Origin: Ignavibacteriales bacterium | Lineage (GTDB): Bacteria > Bacteroidota > Ignavibacteria > UBA10030 > UBA6906 | Assembly: GCA_037441705.1 (NCBI GenBank) | Contig: JBBIRR010000008.1 | Location: 23,925 to 87,924 of the forward strand | Direction of reading: 5' to 3' | DNA: 64,000 bases | Part shown: one piece after another, positions 4,636-64,000 of the stretch | Layout: each line of letters starts with the position of its first letter | Numbering within the stretch: the stretch's first letter is position 1 | Made by a program: the position numbers and the translations under genes | Notes under the pieces: model-generated | Seen by the model: only the letters and a program-made list of their open reading frames with translations | Told to the model about the DNA's origin: nothing | Database searches by the model: none

Positions 4636-6114
4636 TTGCCGAAACGTACCGACCTTAGTTCAATCCTTGTCATAGGCGCCGGGCCGATTGTTATCGGGCA
4701 GGCGTGCGAGTTTGATTATTCGGGAACGCAGGCTTGCAAGGTGCTGCGCGAAGAGGGCTATCGCGTCATCCTCATCAACAGCAATCCGGCCACGATCATG
4801 ACCGACCCGGAGCTTGCCGACCGAACGTACATCGAACCCATCACCCCATATTTTGTCGAGCGCATCATCGAGCGCGAGCGCCCGGATGCCCTGCTGCCGA
4901 CGATGGGCGGGCAAACGGCGCTCAATACCGCCGTTGCCCTTGCCCGCAATGGAACCCTTGCGCGGTACAACGTCGAACTGATCGGCGCGAAGCTCGAGGC
5001 GATTGAGAAGGCGGAAGACCGCGAGCTGTTCAAGAAAACGATGGGTGAAGCGGGGCTTGAAACTCCCCGCGGCGGTTTCGTCCGGACCATTGAAGAGGCA
5101 TTGAAGCTTGCAGGCTTCATCGGGTTTCCCATCATTATTCGCCCTTCCTTCACGCTCGGTGGCACCGGCGGAGGCATCGCCGAAAACGCCGATGAGTTCG
5201 TCGAGAAGGTAACGCACGGACTTGAATCAAGTCCCATTCACGAGGTGCTGTTGGAAGAGTCCGTGTTAGGATGGAAGGAATATGAGCTTGAGGTGATGCG
5301 CGACTTGCGTGACAATGTCGTCATCATCTGCTCCATCGAAAACTTCGATCCGATGGGTGTACACACGGGTGACTCGATCACGGTCGCGCCGCAGCAGACG
5401 CTCACCGACAAGGAATACGAAGCGATGCGCGACGACGCGCTGAAAATCATCCGCGCGATCGGCGTGGAGACGGGCGGCTCGAACATTCAATTCGCCGTCA
5501 ATCCGAACAACGGGCGCCGCCTGGTGATTGAAATGAATCCACGCGTCTCCCGTTCGTCGGCACTTGCATCGAAAGCCACCGGCTTCCCGATTGCCAAGAT
5601 CGCAGCGAAACTTGCTATCGGCTACACGCTGGATGAAATCCCCAACGACATCACGAAACTGACGCCGGCGTCGTTCGAGCCAACGATCGACTACACCGTC
5701 GTGAAGATTCCGCGCTGGGACTTCGAGAAGTTCAAGGGCGTTGATGGCATGCTCGGCATTCAGATGAAGTCCGTGGGTGAAGCGATGGCGTTCGGCAGGA
5801 CGTTCAAGGAGGCGCTGCAGAAAGCGCTGCGCTCACTGGAACAGGGACGCTACGGTCTCGGTGCCGACGGCAAGGACCTCTTCGACATTGACCATCTTTC
5901 CGACGAGCAGAAACAGCGGTGGCGCGAACGTGTTCGCCAACAGCTCTCGCGGCCGCGGCCCGAAAACATCTTTTACCTTCGCTACGGTTTCCAGCTCGGG
6001 ATGACCATTGACGAGTTGCACGCTATCACCAAGATTGATCCGTGGTTTCTTTACAACATCAAACAAATCGTTGATCTGGAAGAAGAGTTGAAGACGTATG
6101 ACATCGAGGCGTGA
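4636..6114 (+). CDS. carB: Carbamoyl-phosphate synthase large subunit, N-terminal part (carboxyphosphate domain plus start of oligomerisation domain)
   Basis: [49 protein letters not shown]; ends [26 protein letters not shown]. Confidence 0.95.
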
Positions 6115-6595
6115 AGGAAGGATCCGAGCGGGAGTTCTCTCGATCGCTGTATTTGTAACTTCGCTGCAGGGGCAGACTATACCCGCGGATAAGGCGGAGC
6201 TTGAGTCGGGAGCCGGAGCGGGAATGGCAAAGTACGCCGAACTGAACAGCTACCCCGGTCCCAAGCATGTCCTTGAATTGCAGGATTCGCTTCGCCTCAC
6301 AGCGGAACAGAAACGAGCGATCGAACTCATCTTTGATCACATGAAGGCTGAAGCGGTGGCGAAGGGGAGGCTTATTGTGCGGAAAGAGGAAGAGCTGGAG
6401 GCGTTGTTCCGGAGCCGCCGCGCCACGGAAAAGGAAGTGGAAAGGAAGTCCCGCGAAATCGGCGCCCTGCGCGGAGAGCTGCGGGCAATTCACCTTCGTG
6501 CACACATCAAGGCGCACGCGATACTTTCCGCCGAGCAAATCAAGCGATACAACACGATTCGCTATGGGTTGAATCAACCGGGGCACACGCATTGA
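6098..6595 (+). CDS. Exported helical protein, Spy/CpxP/periplasmic metal-sensor-like
   Basis: Signal-peptide-like N-terminus; [26 protein letters not shown] and ILSAEQ (LTxxQ) motifs; overlaps both carB halves. Confidence 0.75.
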
Positions 6596-8457
6596 AGAAA
6601 ATAACGGCAGACATACTCCTCAAAGCAAAACAATACGGGTTCTCCGATCGGCAGCTTGCGACGATCTGGAAAACGGATGAAGAGACGGTCAGGCGTTTGC
6701 GGAAGCGTTTCGGGGTGACGGCGGTGTTCAAGACCGTCGACACGTGCGCGGCAGAGTTTGCCGCACAGACGCCCTACCATTATTCCACCTATGAGATGGA
6801 AAATGAATCGGTGCGTTCTCCGAGAAAGAAGATCATCATTCTCGGCGGCGGGCCGAATCGTATCGGGCAGGGTATCGAGTTCGACTACTGCTGCGTGCAT
6901 GCCGTGATGGGTTTGCGTGAAGAGGGGTATGAAACCATCATGATCAATTGCAACCCCGAAACCGTCTCGACCGACTATGACACGACGGACAAGCTGTACT
7001 TCGAGCCTCTCACGTTGGAAGATGTGCTGAACATCTGCGAGCATGAACAGCCGGATGGGATTGTCGTCACGTTCGGAGGGCAGACGCCGTTGAAGATTGC
7101 CAAGGCTCTGGAGGATCATGGGTTCAGAATCATCGGCACATCGACTGAAGGCATCGATCTTGCTGAAGATCGGAAGCGGTTCGGGAAGCTTCTGGAATCG
7201 CTGCAGATTCCGTGTCCGCCGTGGGGCACCGCGTCAAATGTGGAAGAAGCGCTCGAGGTGACAAAAAAGATAGGCTACCCTGTGCTGGTTCGGCCGTCGT
7301 ACGTTCTTGGCGGGCGGGCAATGGAGATTTGCTACGGCGATGATGCGTTGCGGGAGTACATGGCAAAGGCCGTGAACGTTTCGCCCGAGCATCCCGTGCT
7401 CATTGACCGGTTCCTTGAGGATGCGTTCGAATTCGACGTTGATGCGGTTTGCGACGGCGAGGATGTGTACATCGGCGGAGTGATGCAGCACATCGAAGAA
7501 GCGGGTGTTCATTCCGGTGACAGCTCCTGCGTGCTGCCGCCGTATCAGGTGACGGCGCAGCAACTGCACACGCTCATGACGTACACACGCAAGCTTGCAC
7601 TTGCGCTGAACGTTGTGGGGCTGGTGAACGTGCAGTATGCGATGCAAGACGGCGTCGTGTATGTGCTGGAAGTGAACCCCCGCGCCTCGCGTACGGTGCC
7701 GTTCGTCAGCAAGGCGACGGGTGTGCCGCTTGCCAAGATTGCGGCAAAGCTTATGGTCGGCAGAAAGTTGAAGGAATTGGGAGTGAAGGGGTTCAGCTGG
7801 GCCAAGCACGTATCGGTAAAAGAATCCGTCTTTCCGTTCAACAAGTTTCCGACGGCACGTCACTTCCTCGGACCTGAGATGCGCTCGACCGGCGAGGTGA
7901 TGGGGATTGCCGACAGCTTCGGCGTTTCGTTCGCGAAGGCCTCGATTGCGGGAGGGATGCCGCTGCCGCAGTCGGGCACGGTGTTCGTGAGCTTGAATGA
8001 TAACGACAAACGCGAGCGTGCCGTGAACATCGTGCGCAGCTACGTCCGCCTGGGCTTCAATATCCTTGCTACAGAAGGGACGTCGCGCTTCCTGACCGAA
8101 CACGGCATTCCCAACCGTCCGGTGCTGAAAGCCGGCAACTGGACGTTGAACATCATCGACATCATCAAGAACGGCTGGGTACAGCTTATCATCCTCACGC
8201 CGTTGGGCCAGACCTCGCGCGCCGACGAGCACGCCATCGGCCAGACGGCGATGGAGTACAAAGTTCCCTTCATTACGACTCTTGCGGCTGCCGCCTCGGC
8301 CAGCAAGAGCATCGAGGAGATGCGGAAGAACCAACTTTCGGTGATGAGTGTGCAGGAGCATCATGAACTTGCGGCGCAGGGCGGCGAAGCACGCCCCGTG
8401 GAAACGCTCGAGGACTGCGAGCGGATGGTCGAGTATATCCGCTCTTTTCAGATGTAA
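6592..8457 (+). CDS. carB: Carbamoyl-phosphate synthase large subunit, C-terminal part (carbamate phosphorylation and MGS domains)
   Basis: Begins [23 protein letters not shown]; VDTCAAEF, GGPNRIGQGIEFDYCC, GVHSGDS, EVNPRASRTVPF, GPEMRSTGEVMG. Confidence 0.95.
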   Translation: MKKITADILLKAKQYGFSDRQLATIWKTDEETVRRLRKRFGVTAVFKTVDTCAAEFAAQTPYHYSTYEMENESVRSPRKKIIILGGGPNRIGQGIEFDYCCVHAVMGLREEGYETIMINCNPETVSTDYDTTDKLYFEPLTLEDVLNICEHEQPDGIVVTFGGQTPLKIAKALEDHGFRIIGTSTEGIDLAEDRKRFGKLLESLQIPCPPWGTASNVEEALEVTKKIGYPVLVRPSYVLGGRAMEICYGDDALREYMAKAVNVSPEHPVLIDRFLEDAFEFDVDAVCDGEDVYIGGVMQHIEEAGVHSGDSSCVLPPYQVTAQQLHTLMTYTRKLALALNVVGLVNVQYAMQDGVVYVLEVNPRASRTVPFVSKATGVPLAKIAAKLMVGRKLKELGVKGFSWAKHVSVKESVFPFNKFPTARHFLGPEMRSTGEVMGIADSFGVSFAKASIAGGMPLPQSGTVFVSLNDNDKRERAVNIVRSYVRLGFNILATEGTSRFLTEHGIPNRPVLKAGNWTLNIIDIIKNGWVQLIILTPLGQTSRADEHAIGQTAMEYKVPFITTLAAAASASKSIEEMRKNQLSVMSVQEHHELAAQGGEARPVETLEDCERMVEYIRSFQM

Positions 8458-56760: not shown

Positions 56761-59700
56761 GTGAGCATCCTGGTTCCAAACCTTCTCCACCGCCCCGTCG
56801 CCGTCAGCATGATATGCGGTGCGGTGGTGCTTGCCGGACTCTTCGCCTTCACGCGGCTTCCCATCGAACTTGCCCCGTCGATTGATTTCCCGAGTCTCAC
56901 GATTAACACGTCGTGGGGCAGCACATCTCCCGAAACGGTTGAGCAATTCGTCACCGCTCCGATCGAAGAAGTGGTGAACACCGTCGCCGGTGTAAAGAAT
57001 GTTCGCTCGCGTTCTTCCGAAGGCCGCTCGTCGGTGGATGTGGAGTTTGAACAGGGAACGGATATGAGTTTCGCGCGGCTCGAGTTGTACGAGAAGTTGG
57101 CCGCGCTCGCCGAGACATTTCCTGCCGGCGTTCGCTCGCCGCAGATCGCCCCGTATGTGCCGGAAGATTTCAAGGAACTGCAAGGATTTCTTACATTCGC
57201 TCTGTCATCGGACTTGAATGCTGCCGCGCTGCGAACGTACGCGATGGAACGCATTGTGCCCGGACTCATGTCCGTCAAGGGGGTCTCGCGCGTCGAAATC
57301 CTCGGCGGGGAAGAGCGCGAACTGCATGTGCTTCTTGATCCGAAGCGAGTCACCGCAGCCGGATTGACCGTTGATGCCGTTCTTGCCGAACTGCGTGATG
57401 TGGAGTTCAGCGCACCGGTGGGGATGGTGCACGAGGGCACAGCGAGAATGATTCTCGCCGTCAGCAACACGAACGCACGCACGGACGACATTCTCGACCT
57501 TCCGCTGTGCGTGAAAGGAAGCGCGCTGCTGCGGCTGCGCGATGTGGCGACCGTACGTGATACGATCGCTGAAACACGCAGCATCTACCGCATTGACGGC
57601 AGACCTTCCATCACACTTGTCGTTGACAAAGAGCCGCATGTCAACACCATCGAAGTCGCCGACCGGGTGCTTGCCCGTCTGAAGGAGCTTGTCGCTGCGT
57701 TCCCGGGCAATCTCTCATTCACAAAAGTCGTGGACAAGAGCGAGCAGATGCGCGAGGAGTTGGAGAATTTGCGACGGGAGGTCTTCTTCTCGATTCTCTG
57801 CATCTGGCTTGTAATGGTAGTGGCATTGGGAAATTTACGCGCTCCGCTGGTGCTTATGTCCTCGCTCGTCATTTCTCTTGCCGGGACGCTGCTCGTGTTC
57901 TGGCTGCTCGGCCTCAGCCTGCATTTGCTGACGCTGGCGGGCCTCGTTCTCGGCTTCGGACGCGTGGTGGATGATTCGATTGTCGTACTTGACAACATTC
58001 AGCGGCGTAGCGCAGGGATGGTCACTGATGGCGGTATCGTTCACGCGGTCGCACAGGTTCGGCTTCCCGTCATCGCCTCGACCATCACAACGGTGGGCGC
58101 GCTGCTGCCGATTGCATTTCTGCCTCCGGACTTGAAGCCGTACTTCCGTGAGTTCGGCCTTGCAGTCGGGATTGCGTTGGTGATGTCGTTGTTCGTCTCG
58201 TTCACCATCATTCCGGTGATGATTCGCAACGCGCCGGACGCACTGAAAACGAGCGGACGATTCGATGCACAAGGCGATCGTATTCTTTCTGCTTACCGCC
58301 ACGTGCTGAGCTGGTGTTTGCGTTGGCGGAAGAGTGTGCTTGCCGTTGTTGTGCTTGCGTTCGGCTTGCCTGTGTGGCTCTTGCCGGAGCGGATTGATGC
58401 GGACCATCTTCCGGCTCGCATCTACAACCTTGTCTTTTCCAGTGAACCTGTCATCGCTGCACGCCCCTCCATCAACATGCTGCTCGGCGGAGCGTTGCAT
58501 CTTTTCTCTACAAAAGTCATGAAAGGTGAAGTGTGGGAATGGGGGAACGAGACGTATCTTGTTGTCCGCGTGGGATTTCCGCAAGGGACGGAGCTTCAGC
58601 GATACGATGACGTTGCGCGCCTCGTCGAGCGTGAAGTGCAGGCCGCGCCTGAAGGCGTAAGCCGCATGACAACGCGCGTTGTTGACGATTATGCTTCCGT
58701 TCGAGTAGACTTCGATGAGAAGTCTGCAATGACTGCACTGCCGTACGTGATGAAGAACCGTCTGACGGTACTTGCGGCACAAACGGGCGGCGCCACGATT
58801 TCGGTGGCGGGATTCGGTCCGGGGTTCTACTCCGGCGGCGAATCGGCCCCGACCTTTTACGTCAAGGTGTTAGGATACAACTACACGAAAGTGAAAGAGC
58901 TTGCCGAGCAGTTCAAGCAGAAGCTGGAACGCAATCCGCGCATTGCCGACGTTGATATTGACCGGACGTTCGGCCGCTGGCCGAAATCTACAGAAGTGGT
59001 GATGCGTTTTGATCGCGACGCGATCGCCGCGCATCATCTCACTGTTGCCGACCTCATGCCGTGGGTTGGCAGTATGACGCGCGGAACGGTGGATTGGCAC
59101 ACCTTCACGCTCGGAGGCGAGCGTCTTCCGCTGCTCGCGAAAATACAAGGGTTCGATTCCGCATCTGTTCAAGACATCTCGCGCGAACGGATTGTGAATG
59201 CGCGCAGCGAAATAGTGCCGCTCGGAACGCTCATCAGACTCGACGAGCAGCGCGTGATGTCGCAGATAACGCGTGAGAACCAGCAGTATGTGCGGTGGAT
59301 TTCCTTCGAGTACAGGGGACCGTACCGGTACGGCGATCAGTTCGTCGAATCCACCATCAACGCAATGACGCTGCCGCACGGCTACAAGTTCGACAGATCG
59401 TTTACGTGGTTCATCCTTTCCGAACGCGACAAAAGCTCAATGCTCTGGCTTGCCCTTGTGGCCCTGTTGATCGTCTTCATCGTCACTGCCGCGCTCTATG
59501 AGTCGTTCACCAAACCGTTCCTCGTTATCCTCACCGTGCCGCTGTCGCTGATCGGGTTGTTCCTCGCGTTTTATTGGACGGACACGCCTTTTGGCCGCGG
59601 GGGATACGCTTCCGTCATGTTGTTGATGGGAATTGTCGTCTCGAACGCGATTCTTCTGATTGATTACGTTGCGAAGCGTTTTCAATCACACCCGGCTTCG

Positions 59701-59922
59701 GTGGACGAACTTGTGCTTGCCTCGGCCGACCGGCTTCGTCCGATTCTGATGACCTCGATGACCACCATCGGTGCGTTGCTTCCTCTCTTACTCTGGAGCG
59801 CCCGATCGAGTGTGTGGTACTCGCTTGCCCTCGGAACGATCGGAGGGCTGCTCTCCTCAACTCTCCTGACTCTTCTTGTTGTGCCGACAGTGCTTGCGGT
59901 CGTGTACAAGGTGCGGTCGTAG
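56761..59922 (+). CDS. RND permease 2 (AcrB/AcrD/AcrF family)
   Basis: RPVA, SPETVE.FVT.PIE, VVDDSIVV, RLRPILMTS; 1053 aa. Confidence 0.95.
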   Translation: MSILVPNLLHRPVAVSMICGAVVLAGLFAFTRLPIELAPSIDFPSLTINTSWGSTSPETVEQFVTAPIEEVVNTVAGVKNVRSRSSEGRSSVDVEFEQGTDMSFARLELYEKLAALAETFPAGVRSPQIAPYVPEDFKELQGFLTFALSSDLNAAALRTYAMERIVPGLMSVKGVSRVEILGGEERELHVLLDPKRVTAAGLTVDAVLAELRDVEFSAPVGMVHEGTARMILAVSNTNARTDDILDLPLCVKGSALLRLRDVATVRDTIAETRSIYRIDGRPSITLVVDKEPHVNTIEVADRVLARLKELVAAFPGNLSFTKVVDKSEQMREELENLRREVFFSILCIWLVMVVALGNLRAPLVLMSSLVISLAGTLLVFWLLGLSLHLLTLAGLVLGFGRVVDDSIVVLDNIQRRSAGMVTDGGIVHAVAQVRLPVIASTITTVGALLPIAFLPPDLKPYFREFGLAVGIALVMSLFVSFTIIPVMIRNAPDALKTSGRFDAQGDRILSAYRHVLSWCLRWRKSVLAVVVLAFGLPVWLLPERIDADHLPARIYNLVFSSEPVIAARPSINMLLGGALHLFSTKVMKGEVWEWGNETYLVVRVGFPQGTELQRYDDVARLVEREVQAAPEGVSRMTTRVVDDYASVRVDFDEKSAMTALPYVMKNRLTVLAAQTGGATISVAGFGPGFYSGGESAPTFYVKVLGYNYTKVKELAEQFKQKLERNPRIADVDIDRTFGRWPKSTEVVMRFDRDAIAAHHLTVADLMPWVGSMTRGTVDWHTFTLGGERLPLLAKIQGFDSASVQDISRERIVNARSEIVPLGTLIRLDEQRVMSQITRENQQYVRWISFEYRGPYRYGDQFVESTINAMTLPHGYKFDRSFTWFILSERDKSSMLWLALVALLIVFIVTAALYESFTKPFLVILTVPLSLIGLFLAFYWTDTPFGRGGYASVMLLMGIVVSNAILLIDYVAKRFQSHPASVDELVLASADRLRPILMTSMTTIGALLPLLLWSARSSVWYSLALGTIGGLLSSTLLTLLVVPTVLAVVYKVRS

Positions 59923-59991
59923 GTGGGGTTATCCTTGCAGATACCAGCGCATTTACTTTTCTTACACACGAAAATTTCAGATGTTCTCAGT

Positions 59992-60990
59992 ATGAAAGCA
60001 ATGGTTCTCGAATCCCGGGCGGCACCCTTCGTGATGCGAGACGTCCCCACGCCGTCCTTGAACAGCGGCGACGTTCTCATCAAGCTCAAAGCCTCCGCCC
60101 TCAATCACCGCGATTACTACATTCAGCAGGGCACGTATCCTCGCACGAAGTATCCCATCATTGTCGGGTCGGACGGCGCGGGCGTCGTGGAAGCCGTTGG
60201 AGCAGATGTTTCGCCTGCACTCGTCGGCTCGGAGGTCATTATCAATCCTGCGCACGATTGGGGAGACAATCCAAACGTCCAGCAAAAGGACTTCAAGGTC
60301 CTCGGCTTCCCTGACAACGGAACTCTTGCCGAATACATTGCCGTGCCTGCGCGGTACGTGCAGCCCAAACCGCGGCACCTGACATTCGAAGAAAGCGCGG
60401 CGGTTGCGCTCGTCGGCTTAACCGCCTACCGTGCGTTGTTTACGCGCGGCAAACTCCAGCGCGGCGAAACAGTTCTCGTCACCGGCATCGGCGGGGGTGT
60501 GGCTGTAACGGCGATGCAGTTCGCGCTTGCTGTCGGTGCGAGAGTGTGGGTCACGTCAGGGTCCGATGAGAAGATCAAGAGGGCGATGGCGATGGGTGCA
60601 GACGGCGGTGTGAATTACCAGGCTACCGGCTGGGGCGATGAGTTGAAGAAGCGTGCCGGGGGTTTCGATGTGATCGTTGACGGTGCAGCCGGAGCCGGCT
60701 TTGCAAACCTTCTGGATGTTGCGGCCGCAGCAGGACGCATTGTGATCTACGGTTCGGTACAGGGGAAAATTCAGAACGCCGAAGCTGCGCGCATCTACTG
60801 GAAGCAGCTTTCTATTCTCGGCTCGACGATGGGAACGGAAGAGGAGTTTGCCGCGATGCTGCAGTTCCTCGAAACGCATTCCATCAGGCCGGTGATTGAT
60901 AGTGTGTACTCGCTGGTGGATGCGGAGAAAGCGATGCAACGGCTATCGAGCGGTAAGCAGTTTGGGAAAGTGGTATTGAAGAATGAGTAG
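59992..60990 (+). CDS. MDR-family NADPH:quinone oxidoreductase (zinc-binding dehydrogenase family)
   Basis: ALNHRD, GSDGAG, TAYRAL, VLVTGIGGGVA, GSTMG, FGKVVL. Confidence 0.9.
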   Translation: MKAMVLESRAAPFVMRDVPTPSLNSGDVLIKLKASALNHRDYYIQQGTYPRTKYPIIVGSDGAGVVEAVGADVSPALVGSEVIINPAHDWGDNPNVQQKDFKVLGFPDNGTLAEYIAVPARYVQPKPRHLTFEESAAVALVGLTAYRALFTRGKLQRGETVLVTGIGGGVAVTAMQFALAVGARVWVTSGSDEKIKRAMAMGADGGVNYQATGWGDELKKRAGGFDVIVDGAAGAGFANLLDVAAAAGRIVIYGSVQGKIQNAEAARIYWKQLSILGSTMGTEEEFAAMLQFLETHSIRPVIDSVYSLVDAEKAMQRLSSGKQFGKVVLKNE

Positions 60991-61110
60991 CTGCCTTCTG
61001 TTCGCCCTTTGAAACATTGCCGTCTTCTCTCCGTTTAACCTTCCACGTATCAAAGAAACTCGTCCGGGCATTCCGGGACGACACGTACATTCACATCACG
61101 GGACCAAGAA

Positions 61111-61578
61111 ATGGTGGAGGAATTCATCAATGTTCTTCATATTCTCGCAACTGCCGTCTGGATTGGTGGCGCGTCGTTCGTGCATTTCATTCTGAAACCG
61201 GCCTCGCGTGCGATCGACGCGCAGCAGGCGGGCAAGCTGTTTGGGCTTGTCGCTCAACGCTTCTCGAAGGTAGCATGGGGAAGCATCATCACTCTTCTGA
61301 TCACCGGGTATCTGAAAACACCCAACGGACTGATGTTCGACACGTCGTCCGAGATGGGAGTGATGCTGACGATCAAGCACATTCTGGTGGCGGGAGTCCT
61401 TGTCGTTGGATTGACGATCGGGTTGTATGTTGTGCCCAAGATGCAGAAAGCGGCGCCGAAGCCGGGTGAAGCGCCGTCGGCGACGTTCATCGGATATCAA
61501 AACAAACTCAACACGTTTGCCTCTCTCAACCTCGTCCTGGGCGTTCTGGTGGTGATCGTTGCATCGATGTTGTGGTAA
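61111..61578 (+). CDS. CopD/DUF4149-like 4-TM membrane protein
   Basis: LHIL...WIGG motif, TG and K motifs, four TMs. Confidence 0.65.
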   Translation: MVEEFINVLHILATAVWIGGASFVHFILKPASRAIDAQQAGKLFGLVAQRFSKVAWGSIITLLITGYLKTPNGLMFDTSSEMGVMLTIKHILVAGVLVVGLTIGLYVVPKMQKAAPKPGEAPSATFIGYQNKLNTFASLNLVLGVLVVIVASMLW

Positions 61579-61591
61579 AATTCCGAGGAGG

Positions 61592-62980
61592 TTACTTCCT
61601 GTACTTCGAAATAAACTCCTCTACCTCCGGAACGCCGCCTTGAAAAATGAGATAGCCGTTGCTCGGCTCGCGCTCGGTGATTTCGCCGGCTATCGGCGTC
61701 AGCATGATCTCTTTCACTTTCTCTAAGTCATTCGTCTGTCCTAACGCCCACCCCAATTTCACGTAGGCGACTTCGGGCAGCATGTTCGCGGCCGGGACGA
61801 CGCCCAGCTCCATCATGTCGCGGCCCGTGTCGTACACGTACATCTGAACGTAGCCCCACAGCGTCTGCACCGTCATGTACACGGCGATGCCCTTGTCCTG
61901 TGCGCGCTTCAGCGCCGGATAGAGCGGCTTGTTGACGTGGCCAAGTCCTGTGCCTGCAATGACGATGCCGCGATAGTTGTTGTCGATGAGCGCGTCCAGA
62001 ATATCGGGCCGCATGTTGGGATAGTAATACACGATCGCCACCATCTCTTCGAACGCAGTATTGAGGATGACGTTCGTGTCCGTCCTTCGACGGTTGTAGT
62101 CCTGCCGCAGCGGCTTGATGAATTCTCTGCTGACCATGGCGATAGGAATGTCGCCGATGGTGCGGAACGTGGAGCGGTAGCTGGAGTGCATCTTGCGCAC
62201 GCGGGTGCCGCGGTGCAGCAATCCGTACTCGTCGGAGGTCGGCCCGAACATACACACCATCACCTCGGCGATGTCGCTTTCCGCCGCGGTTTTTACGCTG
62301 TGCATCAGGTTCAGCGCCGCGTCGGACGACGGCCTGTCGCTCGAGCGCTGCGAGCCGACCATCACGATCGGGATGGGCGAGTTCTGAACCATGAAAGAAA
62401 GGATTGCCGCCGTGTGATGCATCGTGTCCGTGCCGTGTCCGATGACGATGCCGTGCACCCCTTTCGTGATCTCTCGCGCAATGGCCTCTGCCGTTCCCTT
62501 CCATTGTTCGGGACCCATATTTTCGCTGAACACGCCGTAGAGTTTCTCGGTTTCGAGGTTGCAGATGTCTGCAAGCTCGGGCACCGAGCCGTACAACTCG
62601 CCGGGTGAGAATGCCGGAATCACCGCGCCCGTTCTGTAATCGAGCCTGCTGGCGATCGTTCCGCCCGTCCCTAGAAGTTTCACCTTGGGTTTCTTCGGGT
62701 CGTACGGGAATTCCTTCTCGGGGATTTTGTAGCGCGCCTCCTTGCGGCCGCCGACTCTGATCGCGCGGATGCGGCGTGCGGCGATGCCGATGTTGTAGCC
62801 GACGCGTAGCTTGAGAACGATGTGATGCGGATCGGCTGTTTCCGAGCGAGGAAGAACGATGCCCGAAAACGTTCCGGTGTCTGTCGAAATCTCGACGTCA
62901 CTCCACACCTCCGCGTTGTGGCGTTTCAGCGTTTCGAGTGCCTCGCCGCGGTAGCCTTTGTACGCCTCACCGGTACTCAT
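61592..62980 (-). CDS. gatD: Glu-tRNA(Gln) amidotransferase subunit D (archaeal-type)
   Basis: GatD N-domain HIVLKLRVGYNIGI; asparaginase motifs TGGTIASRLDYRTGAV, HGTDTM; GSQRSSDRPSSDA; RKMHS; MLPEVAYVKLGWALG. Confidence 0.93.
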   Translation of the reverse strand: MSTGEAYKGYRGEALETLKRHNAEVWSDVEISTDTGTFSGIVLPRSETADPHHIVLKLRVGYNIGIAARRIRAIRVGGRKEARYKIPEKEFPYDPKKPKVKLLGTGGTIASRLDYRTGAVIPAFSPGELYGSVPELADICNLETEKLYGVFSENMGPEQWKGTAEAIAREITKGVHGIVIGHGTDTMHHTAAILSFMVQNSPIPIVMVGSQRSSDRPSSDAALNLMHSVKTAAESDIAEVMVCMFGPTSDEYGLLHRGTRVRKMHSSYRSTFRTIGDIPIAMVSREFIKPLRQDYNRRRTDTNVILNTAFEEMVAIVYYYPNMRPDILDALIDNNYRGIVIAGTGLGHVNKPLYPALKRAQDKGIAVYMTVQTLWGYVQMYVYDTGRDMMELGVVPAANMLPEVAYVKLGWALGQTNDLEKVKEIMLTPIAGEITEREPSNGYLIFQGGVPEVEEFISKYRK

Positions 62981-63999
62981 CGCCCAAGTTCCTCCGCAAT
63001 CTGTTCCGCAGCAATCGTGTGTTCTATTCTTCCTCTGAGTCTGTTCATCACGAGTCCCATGAGAATCTCTCGTTTCTTTTCCGGGTGATGGATGTTCATT
63101 CGATTCAGTGACATGATGGCTTCACCGATGGTGGTGTGGAGTTCTTCCGCCGAGCACGGGGCAGGCAACAACTCCTCAGTGAAGCGGCCGTGGCGAGCCA
63201 TCTCTCGCAAAACATAGTAGATGGCATCCTTCGGGATTCTTCCTTGCTTGTATGCTGCGATGAGGCATTGCACCATCGTTTCATCCACCAATGCGGCGTT
63301 GAAGCCTTCTCTCTTCAGACGTTTTGGATACTGGATCAGAATCGCTGCTGCGAGTTGTGGCAGGATGTGCCCTTCGTTGATGAGCGATTCGAACAGCGGC
63401 GCAAAACGGGACACGGCAAGCGATGGCACAAGGTCTTCGGGCACGCCGAGCGAGCGGTAGCGATCCTCTCTGTTCCAGAAATCCAGCGGCAGCGTTGCGC
63501 GTATCCGCGCACGGCGTTCCTCGGTGATGCGGATAGGCGGAAGATCGGTGTCGGGGTACATTCTGTCGGCGCCGGGAAGGATGCGCTCGAAGCCGTTGGT
63601 GCCGTCGCGCAGCGCCTGACGCGTTTCGGAAGGAACGCCGATGGTTGCCTCTCTCGCTCGAATGATAACCTCCTTCGCACCGGTGATAGCATCCTGGGCG
63701 TTGCCCCACACCAGAACGAGCGTGTCGTCGTCGGTCGCACCGACCGCTTTCTTGATTGACTGCCACTCCGCCGTGGAGAGCGATTCACTCGGGCTGTCGG
63801 AATGCAGGATGTTGGGAAGCGTGGTGAGACAGGCGATGACGCGCACGCGGTCGGAGATTTCTTTGGAGAAGTACGTGCCGGTTTGGGTTTGCCAGCGCAA
63901 CAGGCCACGGAAGCCGCGGAGAACGACACACTGGACGAGCATGTTGCTTGCAAGCGCATCCTGCAGCGGCTGGTATTTCGTTCTGCGCAGCAGTTTCGT
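62977..63999 (-). CDS. gatE: Glu-tRNA(Gln) amidotransferase subunit E, 5'-truncated by window edge
   Basis: GAD-type insert (HSD) then GVPSETRQALRDGTNGFERILPGADRMYPDTDLPP; C-terminal LMGLVMNRLRGR; 4-nt overlap with gatD. Confidence 0.9.
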   Translation of the reverse strand, partial: TKLLRRTKYQPLQDALASNMLVQCVVLRGFRGLLRWQTQTGTYFSKEISDRVRVIACLTTLPNILHSDSPSESLSTAEWQSIKKAVGATDDDTLVLVWGNAQDAITGAKEVIIRAREATIGVPSETRQALRDGTNGFERILPGADRMYPDTDLPPIRITEERRARIRATLPLDFWNREDRYRSLGVPEDLVPSLAVSRFAPLFESLINEGHILPQLAAAILIQYPKRLKREGFNAALVDETMVQCLIAAYKQGRIPKDAIYYVLREMARHGRFTEELLPAPCSAEELHTTIGEAIMSLNRMNIHHPEKKREILMGLVMNRLRGRIEHTIAAEQIAEELGR

Positions 64000-64000
64000 G

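Follow-up and report, generated by a model that had tools for sequence, protein, structure and literature searches.

An archaeal-type gatE-gatD gene pair in Ignavibacteria and other bacteria: distribution, probable origin and predicted role in amide aminoacyl-tRNA synthesis

Background

The closest described relatives of the genes considered here are those of the archaeal amidotransferase GatDE, with structures from Pyrococcus abyssi (1zq1) and, together with tRNAGln, from M. thermautotrophicus (2d6f). Passages in two reviews describe this enzyme as recognizing the A1-U72 pair and the D-loop of tRNAGln (PMC2330236, PMC9499178); the 2008 review, in the part concerned, terms GatDE an 'archaeal signature protein' (PMC2330236), and the relevant parts of reviews of 2008, 2021 and 2022 (including PMC2330236 and PMC9499178) state that it is found only in archaea. 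Here we describe a gatE-gatD locus at the end of a 64,000-nucleotide stretch, called the window in what follows, of a contig from an Ignavibacteriales bacterium (assembly GCA_037441705.1, contig JBBIRR010000008.1), which an earlier note on the same DNA had singled out as an archaeal-type amidotransferase in a bacterial genome. The proteins share with archaeal GatDE the same two subunits and the same domain architecture, namely a GatD_N domain followed by an asparaginase fold in GatD, and a cradle, an AspRS-like insertion and a YqeY-like tail in GatE. Taking all lines of evidence jointly, we consider it rather probable that this is a genuine operon maintained by selection, that it specifies an archaeal-type tRNA-dependent amidotransferase of old archaeal origin, and that Glu-tRNAGln is its likeliest substrate.

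The typical bacterial counterpart is GatCAB, which, like GatDE, is a tRNA-dependent kinase and amidotransferase fed by a glutaminase through a tunnel, and whose GatB subunit is a paralogue of GatE according to a section of the 2008 review (PMC2330236). The two enzymes differ in that GatCAB uses an amidase-family glutaminase, GatA, with GatC as a helper, whereas GatDE uses the asparaginase-like GatD, and in that GatB lacks the AspRS-like insertion found in GatE. GatCAB recognizes tRNAs with a U1-A72 pair, the kind present in the window host.

Results and discussion

Identification of the gatE and gatD genes

Two open reading frames (ORFs), both on the minus strand, fill positions 61592-63999 of the window (Table 1); base 64000 is part of the next gatE codon, and the window ends where contig C8 of the host assembly ends. 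The predicted GatD far exceeds the cut-offs of both NCBIfam GatD equivalog models (NF003217, 521.8 bits against a cut-off of 310; TIGR02153, 517.6 bits against 324), contains the Pfam domains GatD_N (residues 24-76), Asparaginase (99-286) and Asparaginase_C (314-426), and matches the solved GatD chains 1zq1_A and 2d6f_A with 412.9 and 410 bits. The gatE portion in the window corresponds to positions 285-624 of the 630-position GatE model and retains both the AspRS-like insertion (Pfam GAD, 24.7 bits, gathering threshold 23.4) and the YqeY-like tail (GatB_Yqey, 31.8 bits, threshold 27), each barely over its threshold. The remainder of gatE was recovered from contig C49 of the same genome. The two GatE equivalog models have cut-offs of 456 and 319.55; on these the portion in the window reaches 200.8 and 176.9 bits and that on C49 332.1 and 284.6 bits, respectively, each half by itself staying below the cut-offs and their simple sum lying above them; the intact GatE of a genome of the same genus (G001) exceeds both, with 527.1 and 444.9 bits, and matches the solved GatE chains with 300-339 bits. 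The matches of the window proteins are far beyond chance (E-values of 1e-156 for GatD and 1e-59 for GatE).

Table 1. Positions of the gatE-gatD genes and of the genes next to them (window positions unless a contig is given)
Feature	Position	Strand	Basis or remark
gatD, complete, glutaminase/asparaginase subunit, 462 aa	61592..62980	-	ORF list, profile matches
gatE, C-terminal 340 residues, 5' end open, cut by the end of contig C8	62977..63999	-	ORF list, profile matches
gatE stop/gatD start overlap, 4 bases	62977..62980	-	ORF coordinates
gatE, N-terminal 298 residues	G000:C49:1-894	-	GatE profile matches, alignment to G001
CopD-like gene	61111-61578		beside gatD
Oxidoreductase gene	59923-60990		beyond the CopD-like gene

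These scores, and the presence of GAD and GatB_Yqey in GatE, bear out the earlier reading of the pair as a full GatD coupled to a GatE with its insertion domain. The same note had named affinity to bacterial AnsA or GatB as the outcome that would speak against it, and here the competing models fall well behind: GatD reaches 522 bits on its own model against at most 157 on that of type II asparaginase, and the two GatE halves reach 332 and 201 bits against at most 110 on GatB models, whose cut-offs are 315 or more. Type I L-asparaginase (AnsA) is closer, in that the GatD core scores 392.5 bits on the subfamily model and has the active-site motifs in common with it; however, the window protein has a GatD_N domain in addition and scores above the GatD equivalog cut-offs, and its gene is translationally coupled to gatE, which rules out a free asparaginase gene.

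The gene itself is whole. On alignment to the intact GatE of G001 (637 residues) the C49 piece runs as far as residue 298 and the window piece from residue 299 onwards, and since the pieces abut exactly, gatE is split by the assembly alone; the C49 half is 90% and the window half (residues 299-635) 71% identical to this protein. At this junction C8 and C49 share no overlap of 11 or more bases; C8 ends, and C49 begins, with a G. The 4-base overlap between the gatE stop and the gatD start indicates a coupled two-gene operon, gatE then gatD; the corresponding overlap is again 4 bases in G001, and a single base shared by stop and start in two other genomes (G006 and G025). Of 49 bacterial loci, 38 have gatE immediately upstream of gatD in the same orientation. 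Apart from these two genes no neighbor is conserved among 53 bacterial loci, the commonest other family occurring in 4 of them, and the gatE-gatD pair thus behaves as a self-contained cassette.

The catalytic residues of both subunits are those of the archaeal enzyme. In GatD, T108 (in GTGGTIAS), T184 and D185 (HGTDTM) and K263 (RKMH) align with their equivalents in 1zq1_A and 2d6f_A and are invariant, or nearly so, in an alignment of 24 sequences. We take the roles of these individual residues to be as in E. coli asparaginase II. The Thr and Thr-Asp-Lys set agrees with the nucleophilic Thr and Thr-Lys-Asp triad by which the GatD active site is described in part of the 2008 review (PMC2330236). 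In GatE, the His/Glu/Glu set is likewise conserved: H29, E171 and E198, located in the C49 half, align without gaps with H15, E157 and E184 of 2d6f_C, which the same source, in the passage concerned, identifies as Mg2+ ligands of M. thermautotrophicus GatE whose mutants lose kinase and transamidase activity (PMC2330236). The GatDE of the window hence looks like an active enzyme.

Variants of the architecture were seen elsewhere in the family. GatE proteins from Bacteroidales and Cloacimonadota loci (L044-L066 and others) have full-length ORFs and align with those of Ignavibacteria only up to about residue 519 of 637, and their tRNA-binding tail seems to be strongly diverged or replaced. In one natural fusion, a protein of 943 residues (P0122), residues 17-474 form a GatE without its C-terminal tail, matching model positions 5-457 of 630, and residues 516-919 a full GatD that is 59% identical to the window GatD. 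A GatE match of 685.9 bits in a Jordarchaeales genome (L119; G331:C2:68515-70425) contains one in-frame TAG, which may reflect an error in sequencing, disruption of the gene or recoding.

Distribution of GatDE in bacteria

GatD exceeds the model cut-off in 7 of 41 close relatives of the host, in 63 of 301 sampled genomes of its class (37 of 135 genera), and in 16 of 401 sampled genomes of its phylum, all 16 belonging to the window's class. Within the class the spread over families is uneven, from near-fixation in family f13 (22 of 23 genomes) to none of 35 genomes in f14. At the 90% identity level, more than 120 clusters share 85% identity or more with the window GatD, and the sources that NCBI gives for proteins this similar are bacteria of the Ignavibacteria, Ignavibacteriales or Bacteroidota.

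Scanning species genomes returned at least 596 relatives among at least 601 pattern matches, of which the best 80 loci were examined. Forty-seven of these, with labels that assign them to about 13 bacterial phyla, share 64-84% identity with the window GatD; the best is labeled Ignavibacteriales. Bacteroidota contribute 19 (including some Bacteroidales) and Cloacimonadota 4; Ignavibacteriota, Zixibacteria, Gemmatimonadota, Acidobacteriota, Rhodothermota, Planctomycetota, Bdellovibrionota, CSSED10-310 and others are represented by fewer loci, and one Krumholzibacteria locus comes on top of the 47. Some sequences from third-party bins labeled Hyphomicrobiales, Eubacteriales or Rickettsiales are placed by the trees with Bacteroidales or other groups, and their labels may not be reliable. 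The archaeal loci among the best 80 are at most 53% identical to the window GatD, with the exception of one (L087) at 65%.

Hence GatDE is not confined to Archaea. The statement that it is archaea-specific, on which the earlier note relied, stands as an account of what the reviews say and fails as a description of genomes, given that the same clade is present in 63 of the 301 class genomes and in loci bearing the labels of about 13 bacterial phyla; GatDE is accordingly not peculiar to the genome studied here. Public annotation pipelines already call such bacterial genes GatD. In the literature searched, which left most subscription journals and supplements out of its scope, we found no paper on a bacterial tRNA-dependent GatDE. 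Thus the sequences are not new, and it is the distribution, the origin and the paradoxical context of bacterial GatDE that appear to be undescribed.

Selection and loss

Within the genus of the host the ratio of nonsynonymous to synonymous substitution rates (dN/dS) is 0.013-0.037 for gatD, about 0.04 for the N-terminal half of gatE and about 0.11 for its C-terminal half, at a synonymous divergence near or beyond 1. The gatE-gatD pair is therefore under purifying selection. At the same time it is present in only 3 of 12 genomes of the genus. In G003, a sister species of the same genus with a genome rated 100% complete, what survives of GatE is residues 1-21 and 191-226, and of GatD, at 95% identity, residues 340-462; this remnant (L131/L026; G003:C14, about 10.3-10.8 kb) adjoins the orthologue of the oxidoreductase gene of the window. 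Three further genomes (G007, G004 and G010) have no remnant of gatD, gatE or the CopD-like gene within 1.5 kb of the oxidoreductase orthologue, G003 being the only one of these with a remnant. Loss of the pair is accordingly ongoing in the genus.

Other routes to amide aminoacyl-tRNAs and the likely substrate

The host also encodes GlnRS (771 bits), AsnRS (497), GatA (629), GatB (569) and GatC (103), the genes for the last three lying apart on contigs C2, C15 and C3; thus glnS, asnS and gatCAB, an inventory of which the earlier note had proposed, are all present. Both tRNAGln genes (anticodons CUG and UUG) and tRNAAsn have U1-A72 and G73. The first pair of tRNAGln, to which the note had also pointed, is hence not the A1-U72 of archaea, and the only tRNA with A1-U72 among the 47 found in the host is tRNATrp. 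By eye, the D-loops of tRNAGln and tRNAAsn are near-identical and 7 bases long (AAUGGCA and AAUGGUA), those of tRNAGlu being longer. The only GluRS of the host carries an Arg that aligns with R358 of the T. thermophilus enzyme. This Arg reportedly, as Sekine and co-workers are said to have found in 2001, marks a discriminating GluRS that does not charge tRNAGln, a rule that is not absolute; the host GluRS accordingly looks discriminating.

We lean towards an active amidotransferase acting on bacterial-type Glu-tRNAGln, as a parallel or corrective route, as the most economical explanation of these data. Activity, substrate and physiological role of the window GatDE would follow by homology from the archaeal enzyme: GatE would bind the mischarged tRNA and phosphorylate its side-chain carboxylate with ATP/Mg2+, GatD would hydrolyse asparagine or glutamine, and the ammonia would pass through the intersubunit tunnel to yield the amide aminoacyl-tRNA. 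With Glu-tRNAGln as the most likely substrate, this would provide a second, GlnRS-independent path to Gln-tRNAGln, or a means of cleaning up Glu-tRNAGln. Such a role requires the enzyme to accept the bacterial U1-A72 tRNAGln; therefore, if tRNAGln is the substrate, its recognition must differ from that by the archaeal enzyme.

Several observations speak against this explanation. With GlnRS, AsnRS and GatCAB all present, the host already has every other route; its tRNAGln has U1-A72, whereas the characterized archaeal enzyme recognizes A1-U72; and a GluRS with the Arg described above would not charge tRNAGln if it discriminates as it appears to. In the class sample of 301 genomes GatD goes together with GlnRS and does not take its place, GlnRS being present in 59 of 63 GatD carriers as against 96 of 238 non-carriers, related genomes not being independent, so that this and the GatB counts given below overstate the signal. 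This differs from the situation in archaea, none of which encodes GlnRS according to the portion of the 2022 review that deals with this (PMC9499178). Finally, one archaeon (G329) possesses a bacterial-type GatDE besides a canonical gatD-gatE pair. In the genomes examined GatDE is thus never formally required, yet it is strongly conserved. In Deinococcus and Thermus the retention of GatCAB is explained by tRNA-dependent asparagine synthesis. These two and Bdellovibrio, which have GlnRS, AsnRS and GatCAB, likewise keep an amidotransferase despite both direct synthetases, as part of one paper relates (PMC4206432); however, the enzyme they keep is GatCAB, whereas the one retained in the window host is GatDE, and AsnB-family genes are present there.

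Since bacterial-type GatDE occurs nearly always beside GlnRS in bacteria and beside canonical GatDE in one archaeon, and is over-represented where no GatCAB turned up, it is conceivable, though we hold it tentatively, that it forms a functionally distinct subfamily rather than a housekeeping Glu-tRNAGln amidotransferase. Its task could then be that of a dual or Asp-specific amidotransferase, quality control by clearing Glu-tRNAGln, or the use of asparagine to form amide aminoacyl-tRNA under a shortage of glutamine. In that event GatDE would cease to be a clean archaeal marker, and its proposed co-evolution with A1-U72 tRNAGln would need rethinking.

A more specific proposal, to which we give a minor share of probability, is that the substrate has changed or widened, the enzyme acting on Asp-tRNAAsn, alone or together with Glu-tRNAGln, in place of a lost GatCAB. 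In its favor, genomes with no GatB match are commoner among GatD carriers (28 of 63) than among non-carriers (23 of 238). In family f23, 10 of 11 GatD carriers lack GatB and a single one of 12 GatB-positive genomes has GatD; two states prevail, one with GlnRS and GatDE and lacking GatB (10 genomes), the other with GatB and lacking both GlnRS and GatDE. Five of five re-checked carriers remained without GatB at relaxed thresholds, showing only cross-hits to GatE, in a search that did not extend to GatA. The archaeal enzyme rejects tRNAAsn by its first base pair and D-loop positions 19/20, as described in a passage of the 2008 review (PMC2330236), and in the host the first of these elements, the 1-72 pair, is the same in tRNAGln and tRNAAsn, as are G73 and the D-loop length; a discriminating GluRS would also fit. 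Against this, AsnRS is present in the host and exceeds the cut-off in all five re-checked GatB-less carriers, and AsnB-family proteins, among which polysaccharide-pathway paralogues may be included, do so in five of five genomes checked (four of them GatB-less carriers), which removes any formal need for an Asp-tRNAAsn amidotransferase. Parts of the same review state, moreover, that characterized GatDE does not use Asp-tRNAAsn, and that the AspRS-like insertion, still present here, is modeled to clash with non-discriminating AspRS (ND-AspRS) (PMC2330236). The co-occurrence counts are in addition inflated by kinship.

Two related ideas were dropped. That GatDE is the sole route to Asn-tRNAAsn in family f13 is contradicted by AsnRS over cut-off in five of five re-checked genomes; the apparent lack of AsnRS in this family at E <= 1e-90 (5 of 23) is an artefact of the asnS model matching in two pieces. 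In G044, G056, G188, G196 and G204, all of this family, the two pieces, which score about 285 and 177 bits, are separated by extra residues. That carriers might be unable to make free asparagine is likewise unsupported, given the AsnB-family matches over cut-off in five of five genomes. In the host, gltX, glnS and asnS lie within 9 kb on one contig (G000:C30:12659-21163), and the frame around glnS comprises 667 residues against the 524 positions of its model.

It is improbable, though somewhat in keeping with its scattered occurrence, that bacterial GatDE is a dispensable leftover, or has a non-translational role, for example as an asparaginase/glutaminase activated by tRNA or in the amidation of some other acceptor, and is kept by inertia where the need for it has gone. 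The formal redundancy with GlnRS, AsnRS and GatCAB, the patchy presence in 3 of 12 genomes of one genus, the decayed remnant in G003 and the lack of a pathway-linking neighbor conserved across the 53 bacterial loci would all suit such an interpretation. However, a dN/dS of 0.013-0.11 at a synonymous divergence of about 1 or more, the conservation of every checked catalytic residue in both subunits, the retention of the tRNA-binding insertion and tail domains, and the near-fixation in some families (22 of 23 in f13) are hard to reconcile with it.

Phylogenetic relationships and origin

The supports given here are those of the Shimodaira-Hasegawa-like approximate likelihood ratio test (SH-aLRT) from quick searches, and the placement of the root is not firm. 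The GatD tree, of 81 rows, unites every bacterial row in a single clade, with L087 as its sister (support 100), and bacteria and L087 together group with the Asgard copies (Jord, Promethearchaeati, Heimdall and Odin) at 95. The GatE tree, for which four GatB sequences served as the root, brings its 42 bacterial rows together at 100, and their sister, at 80, is the GatE from contig C1 of G329. A concatenated tree of both subunits (43 rows, 1108 columns) recovers the bacterial-type clade at 100 and its union with Asgard at 100, with Hadarchaeota, Methanobacteriota, Bathyarchaeota and Nitrososphaerota outside this group. The window version thus belongs to a clade separate from that of archaeal GatDE, apart from the archaeal sister copy. 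This copy is truly archaeal: a gene for a thermosome subunit family match (812 bits) adjoins L087, and an archaeal EF-2 (1133 bits) is encoded in the same genome, G329. G329 carries an adjacent canonical gatD-gatE pair on contig C47 (L127/L122) and an unlinked second set, a bacterial-type GatD on C16 (L126) and a bacterial-type GatE on C1 (L121), which is sister to all bacterial copies and could mark the donor lineage or a back-transfer. Gene order adds a further character: the bacterial order, gatE then gatD, is shared by the Jord, Odin and L082 archaeal loci, whereas 21 other archaeal loci, the majority of those examined, have gatD then gatE; seven, including L087 and the Asgard-labeled L084, are without gatE on the plus strand of the locus.

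Given that the bacterial clade is sister to an archaeal copy, and next to Asgard GatDE, an old inter-domain transfer is supported, in agreement with the proposal of the earlier note; the direction from archaea to bacteria is well supported but not proven. The direction is weakened by the GatE tree, which when rooted on GatB leaves Asgard, other archaea and bacteria in a three-way split, by the very long branch of the asparaginase outgroup in the GatD tree, and by the nature of the support values. The branching within the bacterial clade does not track phyla; after the transfer GatDE has been inherited and lost, and probably also passed among bacteria.

That there was no transfer, the GatDE lineage predating the split of the domains and having been inherited vertically and lost in most bacteria, strikes us as quite unlikely. 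It draws on the same GatB-rooted tree, which cannot tell whether the bacterial copies lie inside or beside the archaeal ones, and on an older proposal, reported in a part of the 2022 review, that GatDE was already present in the last universal common ancestor (PMC9499178); however, GatD is found in just 16 of 401 genomes of the phylum, in one class, and is patchy elsewhere, bacteria and Asgard together exclude the other archaeal groups at 100 (concatenated) and 95 (GatD), the order gatE then gatD is common to Jord, Odin and L082, and the branching of the bacterial clade is discordant with phyla.

The presence of GatDE in bacteria bears on arguments that rest on its restriction to archaea, namely those on the origin of Gln-tRNAGln synthesis, on the absence of GlnRS from archaea and on the co-evolution of GatDE with A1-U72 tRNAGln. 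A bacterial GatDE that is under selection beside GlnRS, in a host with U1-A72 tRNAGln, constitutes a natural experiment on all three, open to ordinary biochemistry, and would further offer a datable gene transfer from Asgard-related archaea to bacteria of a Bacteroidota-related group.

Host genome and integrity of the assembly

The host is a bacterium, as the earlier note had supposed: its full 16S scores 1577 bits on the bacterial model, and the genome, which comprises 3.83 Mb on 92 contigs, has a completeness of 100% and a contamination of 0.6%. The genes of the window are of bacterial types, comprising RND pumps, PorV/PorQ of the type IX secretion system, sigma-54 response regulators and PEP-CTERM/XrtA exopolysaccharide genes, and the GC fraction of the final 2 kb, 0.587, lies within the range of 0.495-0.592 over the window, which upholds the view that the locus is contiguous with bacterial genes and similar to them in composition. 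On the single 87.9-kb contig gatD lies 13 bases from the CopD-like gene and about 600 bases from the oxidoreductase and an RND pump, and the CopD-like gene is again directly beyond gatD in G001, on a 185-kb contig. In the probable source run (X1) one assembled contig covers positions 60080-63984 with zero differences at a depth of 33.7, an adjoining 9-kb contig having a depth of 34.1. A run from another study (X2) yields a 13,922-base contig, about 98% identical, that covers 59000-60953 and 61594-64000 and extends 4.6 kb past the end of the window, thereby bridging the break between C8 and C49. GatD is also present in four single-contig genomes of the class (G083, G115, G259 and G272).

A chimeric contig, which the earlier note had listed as a danger, is excluded by the X1 contig, which matches its neighbor in depth, the bridging X2 contig and the single-contig genomes. 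More broadly, an archaeal fragment wrongly joined to or binned with a bacterial genome, as the cut of gatE at a contig end and the 92 contigs might suggest, is extremely improbable in view of the same arrangement in an independent X2 contig, the matching depths in X1, the 87.9-kb contig that gatD shares with CopD-like, oxidoreductase and RND genes, the CopD-like gene beside gatD in G001, the closed single-contig genomes and the low contamination.

In runs X2, X3 and X4 about 640 bases at positions 60954-61593, including the CopD-like gene, are swapped for about 330 other bases, with the oxidoreductase and gatD staying in place, that is, a strain-level insertion-deletion lies directly beside the operon. 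Elsewhere in the window the large subunit of carbamoyl-phosphate synthase is encoded as two ORFs (positions 4636-6111 and 6592-8454), which match positions 1-476 and 478-1056 of a 1058-position model and have about 480 bases between them.

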